A DNA stretch of 64,000 nucleotides, taken from positions 1 to 64,000 of the IMG/VR virus record IMGVR_UViG_3300023171_000011; one strand, written 5' to 3'. Below, one piece after another: positions 12,952 to 38,596 of this stretch (the stretch's first letter is position 1; the number at the start of each line of letters is the position of its first letter). Below the pieces are notes generated by a model. That model searched no databases. It was given only the letters and a program-made list of their open reading frames with translations, and was not told the DNA's origin. The position numbers and the translations under genes are program-made. This DNA comes from a virus.

Positions 12952-13026
12952 CCCTGTCGAAATCGACACCTTTGGAAGCCCTGAGAGAAATCTTGGGGCT
13001 TTTGCTTTTAAAAACTATATTTGAGT

Positions 13027-13404
13027 ATGAAATACATTTTACTAACCGCAGTGCTTTTATTCTGCCACTACCTAGCTGACTACACACACTTAAGCCGACC
13101 ATACATGCTTGCTGCAAAAAGATTTGGTAAACCACTATGGCCTATCTTTATCCACGCCTGTACTCATGGGACTTTAATGGGATGTGCTCTACTGCTTTTC
13201 AATGTCAAAACTGAAACAACGCTATGGTTAGTCTGCATGCAGGTCTTATCTCACTTCATTATAGACGTTTTAAAGGGCCGAATTAATATTTGGATACCAA
13301 TGGTCCAACAGCCGGCTAAAGTCTGGCATTGGGTCGTATTTGGTGCCGATCAGTACTTCCATCAGGTGATAATCCTTTGGATGGTTTTAATTGCTTTAAA
13401 TTAA
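13027..13404 (+). CDS. DUF3307-family membrane protein
   Basis: CHYLADY...HACTH...SHFIID..K...DQYFH. Confidence 0.8.
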   Translation: MKYILLTAVLLFCHYLADYTHLSRPYMLAAKRFGKPLWPIFIHACTHGTLMGCALLLFNVKTETTLWLVCMQVLSHFIIDVLKGRINIWIPMVQQPAKVWHWVVFGADQYFHQVIILWMVLIALN

Positions 13405-13445: not shown

Positions 13446-13530
13446 TAAATGTTTCGGACGTTCTGTCTGAGCTATTTCGTTAGTTTTGTTTTCATAGAAA
13501 GTCTGGACTGGTACTCCGGACTTTCACATT
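13446..13530 (+). ncRNA. putative small RNA (hairpin, U-rich anti-start-codon tract, terminator-like hairpin)
   Basis: Bounded by promoter and GAAAGTCTGGA/TCCGGACTTTC hairpin; no convincing plus-strand ORF. Confidence 0.45.
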
Positions 13531-13540
13531 TAAAAATAAA

Positions 13541-13573
13541 TTTGGCTGGATTAAAATAATTGTCTTATACTTG
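13541..13573 (+). promoter_or_regulatory. promoter of the tRNA array, nearly leaderless leader-peptide mRNA
   Basis: TTTG-N21-TATACTTG, 4 nt before ATG. Confidence 0.65.
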
Positions 13574-13577
13574 CATC

Positions 13578-13646
13578 ATGAAATTACTAAACATACATCA
13601 GTGGCCCAATCAATTTGACATTATTGTCGAGCGGTTTACTGTGTAG
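13578..13646 (+). CDS. 22-aa attenuator leader peptide MKLLNIHQWPNQFDIIVERFTV
   Basis: Directly after promoter; overlaps antiterminator segment; codons match downstream tRNAs. Confidence 0.75.
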   Translation: MKLLNIHQWPNQFDIIVERFTV

Positions 13647-13666
13647 TTTTAATTATAAAATTATTT

Positions 13667-13699
13667 AGGCCTCTTGACAAAAATCAAGGGGCTTTTTTT
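13667..13699 (+). terminator. attenuator terminator upstream of tRNA array
   Basis: AGGCCTCTTGA/TCAAGGGGCTT 11-bp stem followed by U tract. Confidence 0.85.
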
Positions 13700-13705
13700 A
13701 TGCAC

Positions 13706-13776
13706 AAGGGTTTACGATAATGGTAGTCTACGGGTCTCCAAAACCTAGAGTAATGGTTCGAATCCATTAACCTTTG
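13706..13776 (+). tRNA. tRNA-Trp(CCA)
   Basis: Cloverleaf; loop CT-CCA-AA; T arm AATGG TTCGAAT CCATT. Confidence 0.8.
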
Positions 13777-13781
13777 CAAAT

Positions 13782-13855
13782 AGTGCAATATATCAATTGG
13801 TTAGATTACCGCATTTGGGATGCGGAGGTTCCGAGTTCGAGTCTCGGTTGCGCTA
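13782..13855 (+). tRNA. tRNA-Pro(TGG)
   Basis: AGTGCAA/TTGCGCT acceptor; CCGCA-TTTGGGA-TGCGG. Confidence 0.85.
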
Positions 13856-13926
13856 CGTAGTAGGAAGAGCGGTTCGAGTCCGCAGGATCTTTGATCTGAT
13901 AGTGTATCTGGCTAGCACACCTGCGT
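13856..13926 (+). ncRNA. circularly permuted tRNA-like element (YrlA/Y-RNA-like)
   Basis: Order: GTAGG, T arm, loop-closed acceptor hairpin GGATC-TTT-GATCT, D arm, CCTGC. Confidence 0.6.
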
Positions 13927-13931
13927 TATTT

Positions 13932-14003
13932 TACTGCCTAGTGTAATGGTAAGCACAACAGACTTTGATTCTGTTAGTCGGAGTTCGAATCTCTGGGTGG
14001 TAA
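13932..14003 (+). tRNA. tRNA-Gln(TTG)
   Basis: TACTGCC/GGTGGTA; ACAGA-CTTTGAT-TCTGT. Confidence 0.85.
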
Positions 14004-14004
14004 C

Positions 14005-14077
14005 GGTGATTCTGTCCGTAATGTAACGGAGCCGGTCTGTGAAATCGGTTATCAGGGTTCAAGTCCCTGGTTTCACA
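14005..14077 (+). tRNA. tRNA-His(GTG)
   Basis: CCGGT-CTGTGAA-ATCGG; encoded G-1; mismatches in acceptor stem. Confidence 0.75.
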
Positions 14078-14083
14078 CTAAAT

Positions 14084-14155
14084 ATTTCTGTACGTCAACG
14101 GATAGACTACGAAGCTACGAACTTCGGAATAAGGTTTCGAATCCTTTCAGAAATA
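14084..14155 (+). tRNA. tRNA-Arg(ACG)
   Basis: ATTTCTG/CAGAAAT; CGAAG-CTACGAA-CTTCG. Confidence 0.8.
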
Positions 14156-14160
14156 CAAAT

Positions 14161-14240
14161 GCCCTGCTGACTTATGCAAACTGGTACAGCTACAAGTCTT
14201 AGAAACTTGGTTTTTCTCGGTTCGAGTCCGAGGTGGGGTA
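14161..14240 (+). tRNA. tRNA-Leu(TAG), short variable loop
   Basis: GCCCTGC/GTGGGGT; CAAGT-CTTAGAA-ACTTG; enlarged D region. Confidence 0.75.
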
Positions 14241-14246
14241 CTAAAT

Positions 14247-14320
14247 ATGCTGTTAGCTCAGTCGGTTAGAGCGCCACTCTTATAAGGTGGAAGTCAAAGG
14301 TTCAAATCCTTTACGGCATA
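14247..14320 (+). tRNA. tRNA-Ile(TAT)
   Basis: ATGCTGT/ACGGCAT; CCACT-CTTATAA-GGTGG; canonical D arm. Confidence 0.85.
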
Positions 14321-14335
14321 CTTGTTAAATAGTCT

Positions 14336-14370
14336 GAGGCAGCAGTCGTGATGATAGCTGCCTTTTTATT
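14336..14370 (+). terminator. terminator closing the tRNA array
   Basis: GAGGCAGC...GCTGCCTT followed by T tract. Confidence 0.8.
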
Positions 14371-27160: not shown

Positions 27161-27171
27161 AACGGCTTATT

Positions 27172-30730: not shown

Positions 30731-31372
30731 ATGGCAACTATTGATGAATGTTACAGGTTATTAAAGTACAGGGCTACTAAGAGTGGATTCAACGGCAATT
30801 TAAGTCCGGAAGATTTCAATTTGATTTGGAACAGAGCAGAACAGCGACACTTTAATAACGAATATAAAAGGTACTTGATCAATCAGGAAAGTGCAGATAG
30901 CCTTATACCCTTCAAAACAGACCCTCTAGCGATATCAATTACTTCTGATGGCAAATACACCAAGCCGGCAGGAGTTCTTCATGTAGACGCTGTTAGAGCG
31001 CCTTATTTGACAACAGAGGTAGAAGTGGTCAGGGTGGAAGACGACAGACTTGCTAACCACTTAAATTCGACTTATGATGCTCCAAACGCTGAGTTTCCGA
31101 TATACACCGAATACAAGGCCTACATTCAATTTAATCCCAAGAACCTGGCAAATGCCTTGCTAGTTTATTTAAAGGCGCTGACACCTGCTAAATGGGCTTA
31201 TACGCTTGTTAACAACAGACCTTTCTATGATAGCGATAATTCAGTTCAACCTTTATGGAGAGAGAATGATATTGATGAAATTATTTATATTGCAGGTTTG
31301 GACTTAGGCCTTAATTTAAGAGATCAGCAAACAATTCAGATGAGTGATAAACTAGCTAAAGAAAACGCATAA
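30731..31372 (+). CDS. tail ring / head-tail adaptor protein
   Basis: G.LSPEDFN...A, YLK..P..WAY crAss-like ring pattern; promoter TACATTTG at 30707. Confidence 0.75.
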   Translation: MATIDECYRLLKYRATKSGFNGNLSPEDFNLIWNRAEQRHFNNEYKRYLINQESADSLIPFKTDPLAISITSDGKYTKPAGVLHVDAVRAPYLTTEVEVVRVEDDRLANHLNSTYDAPNAEFPIYTEYKAYIQFNPKNLANALLVYLKALTPAKWAYTLVNNRPFYDSDNSVQPLWRENDIDEIIYIAGLDLGLNLRDQQTIQMSDKLAKENA

Positions 31373-37165: not shown

Positions 37166-38098
37166 ATGAGCTTCACTATATTACAAAACACACCGACAAT
37201 AATCCCACTGGCAGACTACGCTAAGACTACTGGATGGACACTGGAAGACGGGGTTGCCAAGCACGAAGCCTGTAACGATGGCGAAATCAACGTGAAGGGC
37301 TCTACGATCTCTCCTGTGAGTGGACAAAGCTATACGGTGGCATATGAGATCACCAACTTGTCCGGAGGCTCTATAAGGCTTAGAATTGGTACTACACAAG
37401 GAGTATTGAGAACAACCAATGGTCAGTACGTGGAGACGCTTGTAGCCGGAGGTTCAAACCCTTTAGTGAGCTTCTTTGCTACAGGGGCCTTATGGCTAAG
37501 AACGATTGATGTAAAGTCTTCGGTTCCCAATGTAGCGACTAAAAAAAGAAACACGATTGTGTTCAGTGAGCAAACAGCCAAGTGGTCCACGTTCTTTTCA
37601 TTCACCAGTGATTACGGTTTGTCGCTTTTCAAGGACTTATTTACTTTCAAGGCAGGGAAGATGTATAGGCATGATCCGAGTCTACCGACAAGGAATAATA
37701 TTTATGGAGTTCAATATAAAACCATATTTAAGTTTGTTGCCAACGGTGGAGAAGGGATACCTAAAAGTTATATGGGGCTTTCGTATGAAGGGAATCAATT
37801 AATGGTGACAACAGCCAATGGGGTGGAGACTTCTTTAGGTCAGGTAAGCGAATTGATTGATCAGGACTTCTTAAAAGCATCACTAGATGATGGTATGGTA
37901 CAAATTGACGTTTATTCCGTTGAAGGGATTTATAGCAGTTCTTTCTTAAGAGATATTTCAAATGGAGGCGATATAAATAACGGAGATGTATTGAAAGGCT
38001 CTTACATAACAGTTGAACTCATTCAGGTAAACAACGCTACTTTAAGGTTAAGTAATATTAAAGTTCATTCAGAAAGCAGTCCAATTGGAAGTCGTTGA
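37166..38098 (+). CDS. C-terminal part of tail stabiliser with N-terminal beta-sandwich
   Basis: TIVFSE...WSTFFSF...FTFK.G.MYRH...NNIYGVQY, EG.Y, LKG.Y. Confidence 0.7.
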   Translation: MSFTILQNTPTIIPLADYAKTTGWTLEDGVAKHEACNDGEINVKGSTISPVSGQSYTVAYEITNLSGGSIRLRIGTTQGVLRTTNGQYVETLVAGGSNPLVSFFATGALWLRTIDVKSSVPNVATKKRNTIVFSEQTAKWSTFFSFTSDYGLSLFKDLFTFKAGKMYRHDPSLPTRNNIYGVQYKTIFKFVANGGEGIPKSYMGLSYEGNQLMVTTANGVETSLGQVSELIDQDFLKASLDDGMVQIDVYSVEGIYSSSFLRDISNGGDINNGDVLKGSYITVELIQVNNATLRLSNIKVHSESSPIGSR

Positions 38099-38131: not shown

Positions 38132-38596
38132 ATGGAACTCGCCGACAACCACAATACATACCATGATTTAGTAGATCAGATTGAGGCTGTTATTGTGAAT
38201 GAAGGTACACCTGTTGAGTGTCGGATTAAACACTTATTTACGAAGGGTGTTTATTGTAGGGAGATGTTTGTTCCCAAAGGGACGATACTTACCAGCAAAC
38301 TGCATAATATGCAGCACCCGTTTGTTTTGTCTATGGGTGCAGTAGGTGTGTTGGAGAACAATAAAGTGACAGAGGTGATGGAAGCCCCATATTTAGGAGT
38401 TACGGAACCTGGAACCAGAAGAGTGATTTATGCTTATGAGGATTCTATTTGGACCACATTTCATCCAGTATCTATTTATCCGGAGTCCGATAGCGAAGAG
38501 GATCTGCTTATTGCAGTTCAAAAAGTAGAAGACTTGGTGATTGACAATTACGATAATAATTTAATAACAGTTAAGAAAAAGGAGGAGTTAACATGA
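38132..38596 (+). CDS. cupin-like phage protein
   Basis: HLFTKGVYCREMFVPKG..LTSKLH...H...PGTRR.IYA.ED..W.T.H; promoter TACATTTG at 38108. Confidence 0.75.
   Translation: MELADNHNTYHDLVDQIEAVIVNEGTPVECRIKHLFTKGVYCREMFVPKGTILTSKLHNMQHPFVLSMGAVGVLENNKVTEVMEAPYLGVTEPGTRRVIYAYEDSIWTTFHPVSIYPESDSEEDLLIAVQKVEDLVIDNYDNNLITVKKKEELT

Follow-up and report, generated by a model that had tools for sequence, protein, structure and literature searches.

Classical leader-peptide attenuators carry tandem runs of regulatory codons. Enterobacterial examples include trpL, hisL, leuL and pheL as well as the multivalent leaders of thr (Thr/Ile) and ilvGMEDA (Ile/Val/Leu), and in Escherichia coli an aminoacyl-tRNA synthetase operon, pheST, is controlled in this manner through pheM. 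To our knowledge, all leader-peptide attenuators described so far control operons for amino-acid biosynthesis or for a synthetase. The usual view of phage tRNA genes is that they are constitutive supplements to codon usage or, lately, decoys or replacements against tRNA-cleaving defences; we know of essentially no work on their regulation. We analyzed a 64,000-nucleotide (nt) stretch of phage DNA, i.e., positions 1 to 64,000 of the IMG/VR record IMGVR_UViG_3300023171_000011 (hereafter, the window), in which a promoter, a 22-codon leader open reading frame (ORF) and an intrinsic terminator precede an array of seven tRNA genes, all between positions 13541 and 14370. Judging from its sequence, this leader is probably a ribosome-mediated transcription attenuator of the trp/his type that exerts feedback control on the phage tRNA supply.

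The locus displays every sequence-level feature that defines the leader-peptide attenuator class except the cargo, which here consists of seven tRNA genes. As in the thr and ilvGMEDA leaders, a promoter-proximal short ORF rich in regulatory codons and the 1:2, 2:3 and 3:4 elements lie ahead of the first regulated gene, the position of the stop codon would let a finishing ribosome block segment 2, and several species would be sensed by one leader. Unlike in those operons, the cargo is composed of tRNAs rather than amino-acid biosynthesis genes, five to seven species would be sensed, mostly by one codon each and without tandem runs, and the mRNA is probably leaderless and transcribed from a mobile cassette of Bacteroidota phages. 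The pheST system is similar in that a leader-peptide attenuator governs the decoding machinery and not a biosynthetic pathway. In contrast with pheST, whose cargo is a synthetase and whose leader has tandem codons for one amino acid, the tRNA products of the phage array would feed back directly on the sensor codons.

Two other systems share part of this design. In mycobacteria, leaderless polycysteine short ORFs function as Cys-responsive attenuators (bioRxiv 10.1101/834739). They likewise consist of a leaderless 5′ short ORF in which codon-specific translation speed controls downstream expression, but they occur in another phylum, sense one amino acid, have cysteine metabolism as their cargo and are not presented there as a classical 1:2/2:3/3:4 switch of tRNA genes. 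In Anabaena PCC 7120, a silent long tRNA array, the trn operon, is induced by translational stress (PMC8421152) and repressed by TrcR (PMC10272220). It thus resembles the phage locus as an accessory array that is off by default and on when translation is impaired, but it is located on a cellular megaplasmid and its control is ascribed to a transcriptional repressor, with no codon-matched leader ORF described, and the word stem "attenuat" is absent from PMC8421152. Full-text literature searches retrieved no description of leader-peptide attenuation of tRNA genes, phage or cellular.

The elements of the leader region are as follows.

13541-13573, + strand: Bacteroidota-type promoter matching the consensus, with a -33 element TTTG (13541-44), a 21-nt spacer and a -7 box TATACTTG (13566-73)
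13578-13646, + strand: leader ORF, ATG plus 21 sense codons plus TAG (13644-46), peptide MKLLNIHQWPNQFDIIVERFTV, from the ORF list and the sequence
13587-13613, + strand: putative sensor zone, codons 4-12 (CTA AAC ATA CAT CAG TGG CCC AAT CAA), from codon matches and the stall model
13589-13649, + strand: leader hairpin (1:2), -16.1 kcal/mol, z = -1.9, with an apical hairpin 13614-20 / 13625-31
13624-13637, + strand: segment 2, the putative antiterminator strand, containing GTCGAG, from folding, duplex energy and alignment
13667-13701, + strand: intrinsic terminator, 11-bp stem 13667-77 / 13684-94, 6-nt loop 13678-83 and T7 run 13695-13701

The promoter, the 22-codon ORF and the 11-bp terminator ahead of the tRNA genes had been proposed in an original prediction made from the same DNA, and all three were found where it had placed them. 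The -7 box ends 4 nt ahead of the start codon at 13578. Exactly this spacing is seen in 8 of the 10 leaders compared below, in which the -7-like box reads TAnnTTTG, in some cases with a single mismatch. With the Bacteroides/Flavobacterium promoter consensus, such spacing puts the transcription start at or beside the A of the ATG, and the leader mRNA is therefore predicted to be leaderless or nearly so. An alternative, perfect -7-like box (TAAATTTG, 13537-44) would instead give an AU-rich 5′ untranslated region of ~28 nt. The leader ORF and the terminator are separated by an AT-rich spacer.

The tRNA genes behind the terminator were called using ARAGORN and Rfam covariance models (Rfam tRNA cut-off, 29 bits).

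13706-13777, + strand: tRNA-Trp (CCA), starting 11 nt past the end of the terminator stem at 13694; ARAGORN and Rfam
13782-13856, + strand: tRNA-Pro (UGG); ARAGORN and Rfam
13857-13931, + strand: 75-nt non-tRNA element with a T-arm-like GCGGTTCGAGTCCGC; no tRNA call, fold z = +0.4 relative to shuffles
13932-14004, + strand: tRNA-Gln (UUG); ARAGORN and Rfam
14006-14078, + strand: tRNA-His (GUG), identical in metagenome contig L013; ARAGORN and Rfam
14084-14156, + strand: tRNA-Arg (ACG); ARAGORN and Rfam
14161-14240, + strand: atypical tRNA-Leu-like gene with anticodon UAG and a long D region; Rfam 21.9 bits, covariation
14247-14321, + strand: tRNA-Ile (UAU); ARAGORN and Rfam
14337-14370, + strand: hairpin GGCAGC (14338-43) / GCTGCC (14357-62) followed by a T run, read from the sequence; probably the terminator closing the tRNA transcription unit

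Six of the seven tRNAs initially proposed (Trp CCA, Pro UGG, Gln UUG, His GUG, Arg ACG and Ile UAU) were called by both programs. The seventh, Leu(UAG), was missed by ARAGORN and scored below the Rfam cut-off; it is supported by a consensus cloverleaf in which 4 pairs are compensatory among three phages. There is only one tRNA anticodon species for Trp and one for His. The array is not aimed at the commonest codons of this phage, as CTA represents 11% of its Leu codons and CGT/CGC/CGA 26% of its Arg codons.

Codons 4-10 of the leader read CTA AAC ATA CAT CAG TGG CCC, as first reported, and the sensor zone as a whole contains codons read by the array tRNAs Leu(UAG), Ile(UAU), His, Gln (twice) and Trp, besides CCC for Pro. 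The initial claim that six of the seven array tRNAs are covered holds at the amino-acid level. By strict wobble rules, five are matched within codons 4-12 (Leu, Ile, His, Gln and Trp, including the CTA/Leu and ATA/Ile pairs), CCC being outside standard wobble for Pro(UGG) and a match to it at the amino-acid level only. CGG, which lies in segment 2, had been set aside as a sensor codon, and we agree, since an ICG anticodon does not read CGG and the homologues have CGA or CGC in their sensor zones. Seven-codon windows as rich in array-cognate codons represent a fraction of 8e-5 to 5e-4 of the stop-free windows in the six frames of the whole genome, and the enrichment in codons 2-13 of this leader, a zone fixed a priori, has a p value of 0.008.

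Analyses of the RNA structure revealed mutually exclusive pairings. The 5′ strand of the leader hairpin consists of the sensor codons; opposite it, the 3′ strand spans segment 2 and the sequence up to and including the stop codon. The alternative partner of segment 2 is the 5′ arm of the terminator (13666-80): reading of the sequence gave 13 pairs out of 14, three of them G-U, between 13624-37 and 13667-80, with a duplex energy of -17.0 kcal/mol compared with -7.6 +/- 2.3 in shuffles (p = 0.002-0.003). The full leader folds into the leader hairpin plus the terminator (-33.1 kcal/mol, z = -4.0), and removal of the terminator 3′ arm yields the 2:3 antiterminator composed of segment 2 and the 5′ arm. 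Folds and duplex energy thus bear out the pairings first proposed, segment 1 with segment 2 and segment 2 with the terminator 5′ arm.

Related arrays surfaced in metagenome contigs, and homologues were then sought with exact anchors in tRNA-His and tRNA-Leu, which are independent of the leader, and later also in the leader. An exact-pattern scan for segment 2 and a pattern search for Gln-His-Arg anticodon loops found nothing. The anchors retrieved three contigs of uncultured phages, L013 (= L014), L015 (= L017, 56.7 kb) and L016, and BLAST with the contig arrays led to the cultured Cellulophaga phages phi38:1 and phi19:1, Maribacter phage Panino and Tenacibaculum phage Gundel_1. The comparison set comprises ten leader/array pairs from at least seven phages. 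The leaders of the three contigs have exactly 22 codons each and their terminators start 89-91 nt past the ATG; the six further leaders are ORFs of 20-30 codons, and an intrinsic terminator is present ahead of the first tRNA gene in all homologues. Outside the cassette, no protein similarity was detected between the three contigs and this phage. As the cassette is the sole region of homology, the leader and the array travel as one unit.

Across the ten pairs, the codon content of the leader tracks the content of the array. A lack of such correspondence in homologous arrays had been named as grounds for rejecting the original prediction, which the comparison instead supports. The arrays of L013, L015 and L016 encode Pro(UGG), Gln(UUG), His(GUG), Arg(ACG) and Leu(UAG), and their leaders contain CAT CAG CTA CCG CAA CGA (H Q L P Q R), CTA CAT CGC CAA CCG (peptide order L H R Q P Q) and CAT CAA CAA CCG CTA CGC (H Q Q P L R), respectively. 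All five array tRNAs are represented in each case within 5-6 consecutive codons, in permuted order (p = 0.0016 each, fixed zone). TGG and ATA are both absent from these three leaders. Within this leader family, tRNA-Trp and a leader TGG occur in the window phage only, as does tRNA-Ile(UAU), for which its leader has ATA; ATA is also found in the leaders of phi19:1 and Gundel array B and in the unrelated leader of Panino array 2. Gains of other tRNAs are reflected similarly. In phi38:1 and Panino array 1, tRNA-Glu and tRNA-Leu(UAA) are added, and the leaders hold two Glu codons each plus TTA codons. In Gundel array B, tRNA-Asn is added, and its leader holds four Asn codons. Two leaders are unrelated to these. 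That of Panino array 2 (Ala, Lys, Ile, Gly) reads MRAATGIAIIGRTKDK... and has A, G, I and K codons, and that of Gundel array A reads ...YSYSCFSSWF..., its array consisting of Trp, Phe, Ser(UGA) and Ser(GCU) together with two odd tRNA-like genes whose loops are GUA-like and GCA-like. In total, codons 2-13 of the leader include a strictly cognate codon for 43 of the 53 tRNAs encoded in the corresponding arrays, compared with 26 of the 127 tRNAs absent from them (odds ratio, 17); the Fisher p value of 2e-14 is descriptive only, as many leaders are related. The rare codon CTA is used in this leader and in its three contig homologues.

Gundel array A contains three atypical tRNA-like genes (L021 578-646, 654-721 and 899-972). 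With 27.8 and 25.7 bits, two of them narrowly miss the Rfam cut-off, and the anticodon loop of one is 8 nt long. GUA, CCA and GCA are found in the loops of the three genes and match the Tyr, Trp and Cys codons of leader A.

The 1:2, 2:3 and 3:4 architecture first proposed for the window recurs in all ten pairs, eight of which were folded, the two leaders of Gundel_1 being judged by reading the sequence only. Each of the eight folded leaders forms a long imperfect hairpin with the sensor region in the 5′ strand and the region from segment 2 to the stop in the 3′ strand. Leader hairpins of the four 22-codon leaders have energies of -15 to -18 kcal/mol with z scores of -1.9 to -3.3 (-2.0 to -3.3 in the homologues). 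The complementarity of the 3′ strand to the terminator 5′ arm exceeds chance in all eight (p = 0.002-0.06), with antiterminator duplexes of -10.5 to -13.9 kcal/mol (p = 0.02-0.06) in L013, L015/L017 and L016. RNAalifold on a MAFFT alignment recovered 10 pairs of the leader hairpin only and missed the terminator because its arms were misaligned, and we used per-sequence folds instead. The nucleotides of the GTCGAG motif in segment 2 are conserved in L013, L015 and L016, but the reading frame differs in the window phage, which argues for selection on the RNA rather than on the peptide.

We then folded the leaders with and without a ribosome footprint, modelled as a mask from -15 to +12 relative to the A site on the nascent transcript before the terminator 3′ arm exists. 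In the eight leaders, the antiterminator was the minimum-energy fold only when the A site was at about codon 13 or earlier (13-17 in the longer leaders) and was lost once the ribosome moved past the boundary codon. In the four 22-codon leaders, the boundary up to which a stall permits the antiterminator is at codon 12-13, where the cluster of cognate codons ends. Without a ribosome, the three contig homologues retain the leader hairpin, such that the terminator forms.

These features suggest the following mechanism. Transcription would start at or within a few nucleotides of the ATG at 13578, and a ribosome would translate the 22-codon leader behind the RNA polymerase. If codons 4-12 are decoded fast, the ribosome would reach codon 14 or so and beyond and cover segment 2 (13624-37); the terminator (13667-94) would then form, and transcription would end ahead of tRNA-Trp. 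If the ORF is not translated, the sensor codons and segment 2 would pair in the leader hairpin and the terminator would again form. A stall on a sensor codon would hold the 5′ strand of the leader hairpin in the ribosome and free segment 2 to pair with the terminator 5′ arm, so that the polymerase would read through into the tRNA genes. The sensor codons would be those read by the tRNAs of the array, Leu(UAG), Ile(UAU), His, Gln, Trp and probably Pro, and the circuit would thus represent a negative-feedback, OR-gated controller matching phage tRNA production to demand. The architecture, its conservation, the codon matches to the array tRNAs and the alternative pairings were established computationally, whereas translation of the leader ORF, its coupling to transcription, stall-dependent read-through and the physiological trigger are steps that we infer from the sequence.

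Several observations weigh against this reading. Since the homologues are related, the p values given above are not independent. TTA and Asn codons (AAC, AAT) occur without matching tRNAs in several leaders including that of the window phage, and the phi19:1 leader has ATA though its array lacks tRNA-Ile(UAU). In the window phage, no codon of the zone is read by tRNA-Arg(ACG), and CCC is no standard match for the anticodon UGG. There is one codon per array tRNA (two for Gln) and no tandem run, and a single stall may therefore be weak. The antiterminator of this phage is slightly favoured thermodynamically in the nascent transcript even without a ribosome, which implies either that termination by default depends on the order and kinetics of cotranscriptional folding or that the switch is leaky. 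The invariant CAT and the CCG of the contig homologues are part of conserved stems (TACAT/ATGTA and ACCGC/GGTGG), and their conservation could therefore be structural. Coupling and leaderless initiation are presumed for these hosts, and a search of sequencing runs found the whole stretch only in its probable source sample and the sequence in no RNA run.

Four other explanations of the locus were considered. In the mask model, any slowing in the first ~13 codons yields the antiterminator, and one codon per tRNA makes a weak specific sensor, as might be expected of a translation-dependent switch that is indifferent to particular tRNAs and reports general translation capacity or the stage of infection (ribosome availability, host shut-off, elongation rate), codon content being secondary. 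We consider such a switch unlikely, as it leaves unexplained how leader codons track the arrays through gains of Trp, Glu and Asn and in unrelated leaders, and why the rare CTA was chosen in this leader and the three contig homologues.

The conservation of the leader hairpin and terminator as RNA structures, with CAT and CCG inside conserved stems, would also be compatible with a constitutive leaky terminator or insulator, or with a small RNA that has its own terminator, giving fixed read-through from an untranslated ORF. The Rfam matches are to hairpin-plus-terminator families and all sub-threshold. None of the leader families (Trp_leader RF00513, Phe_leader RF01859, Thr_leader RF00506, trpB motif RF04312, L10_leader RF00557) was found at the gathering threshold. 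The best match was to the trpB ncRNA motif RF04312, at 28.4 bits in the window (13600-13704) and 31.4 bits in L015 (1087-1188) versus a threshold of 59; matches to Trp_leader (22.8 bits versus a threshold of 41), Phe_leader (27.9 versus 55, in Gundel-A) and Thr_leader were far too low. The trpB motif matches probably reflect nothing more than a common arrangement of a hairpin, an AU-rich spacer and a terminator. Conservation of RNA structure alone is nevertheless an improbable account of the locus: the ATG is fixed 4 nt past the -7 box in 8 of the 10 leaders, the frames remain open for 20-30 codons despite 25-45% nucleotide divergence, the cognate codons are reordered yet the set is complete, two unrelated leaders fit their own arrays, and the complementarity between segment 2 and the terminator 5′ arm would have no role.

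Recurring C-terminal motifs, RGGTGM in the three contigs and Y-G-x-D-G in the cultured phages, might point to ordinary conservation of a functional micropeptide whose transcript merely ends at the terminator. This is very improbable, because the residues of the conserved block occur in different orders in the homologues, GTCGAG is retained in another reading frame, and the leaders are always directly ahead of tRNA arrays, move with them and track their composition. Equally hard to credit is an RNA-only switch that binds tRNA or protein directly (T-box, PyrR/TRAP-type) without a ribosome: such systems also use terminator/antiterminator alternatives, but Rfam searches of the leader gave no T-box match at E <= 1, the region lacks a specifier-loop or T-box motif and is too short, and an RNA of ~90 nt would need to sense several different tRNAs. 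None of the four explanations accounts for both the codon/array covariation and the complementarity of segment 2 to the terminator arm, and the micropeptide, T-box and plain small-RNA readings were rejected.

A further step beyond tRNA-supply attenuation is more speculative. The cassette could possibly be a mobile, self-regulating counter-defence module, in which an OR gate senses the loss of any of several host tRNAs and turns on replacement tRNAs within one round of leader translation, the sensor codons being rewritten with each gain or loss of a tRNA. Triggers may include anticodon nucleases, Cas13-type collateral cleavage of U-rich anticodons and phage-induced decay of host RNA; the original idea of host tRNA cleavage as the trigger of an inducible counter-defence would be compatible with the attenuator design.

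If the attenuator model is true, sensor codons read by the very tRNAs that they control would establish a direct feedback loop on the decoding pool, and attenuation, a textbook mechanism, would be extended to genes of a new class and to Bacteroidota, a phylum with unusual promoters and translation initiation in which leaderless leaders appear to be in use. Because the same design is present in phages with cultured hosts (phi38:1, phi19:1, Panino and Gundel_1), the hypothesis is directly testable. RNA-seq of phi38:1 infection has been published, and the transcriptome paper mentions host tRNA genes only (PMC5335546). For annotation, it would follow that tiny "hypothetical proteins" preceding phage tRNA arrays may be leaders.

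Some annotated coding sequences (CDSs) in these phage records sit atop unannotated tRNA genes. In phi38:1 (L019, KC821614.1), unannotated genes for tRNA-Pro(UGG) and tRNA-Glu(UUC) at 1210-1366, i.e., 38141-38297 of the record, lie beneath CDS gp071 (38163-38294), which is thus probably spurious, and the leader ORF (37987-38076) forms the in-frame end of annotated gp070. In phi19:1 (L020, KC821607.1), an unannotated 30-codon leader ORF, a terminator and tRNA-Pro(UGG), at 1366-1593 or 30904-31131 of the record, precede the annotated Gln-His-Leu-Arg array. In Gundel_1 (L021, MT732474.1; 1104-1876), an HNH endonuclease gene (1309-1815) is located between the terminator of leader B and its array and overlaps the start of tRNA-Pro, which looks like the insertion of a homing endonuclease into the cassette.

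The window belongs to a phage contig of 74,858 nt (38% G+C), with nearly all genes on the + strand. Among its phage proteins are a terminase, a P22-like portal and a primase/polymerase. The nearest cultured relatives of the portal are all phages of Flavobacteriia (~26% amino-acid identity), a motif scan found Bacteroidota-type promoters (TTTG, 19-21 nt, TAnnTTTG) before structural genes, e.g., at 27171, and the best genome match of the DUF3307 protein encoded next to the cassette is a Hymenobacter metagenome-assembled genome. On these grounds, the host is likely a member of the Bacteroidota. Upstream of the cassette are the following features.

13021-13404, + strand: DUF3307 membrane-protein gene, the last gene of the upstream operon, from the ORF and family assignment
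13500-13530, + strand: 8-bp hairpin (13500-07 / 13515-22) followed by a T-rich stretch, read from the sequence; probably the terminator of the upstream operon

Relatives of the DUF3307 protein, P0002 (73% identity, on a 76-kb NCBI contig) and P0003 (71%), were not found in the phage, IMG/VR or GTDB collections. Relatives identified through the primase (~60% identity; L001-L009, one of them a complete genome of 73.9 kb) lack tRNAs entirely, indicating that the array is an insertion specific to this lineage.

Minor observations were made in and around the array. A spacer of 57-95 nt after tRNA-Pro is also present in L013, L015, phi19:1 and Panino, with no obvious sequence similarity. A 178-nt contig from another leaf-litter metagenome corresponds to 13651-13901, the leader being outside the contig. 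Its terminator is alike (5 differences in 48 nt), 79 nt replace the 156 nt of tRNA-Trp and tRNA-Pro, and positions 13855-13901 are kept with one difference. Beyond the window, at 70535-70607 of the phage genome, an odd eighth tRNA is encoded on the minus strand (Rfam 49 bits, ARAGORN "tRNA-???"). With its anticodon loop GACTAAA, it may have the amber-reading anticodon CUA or an otherwise aberrant one; TAG is the stop codon of the leader ORF and of 5 of the 41 long ORFs.

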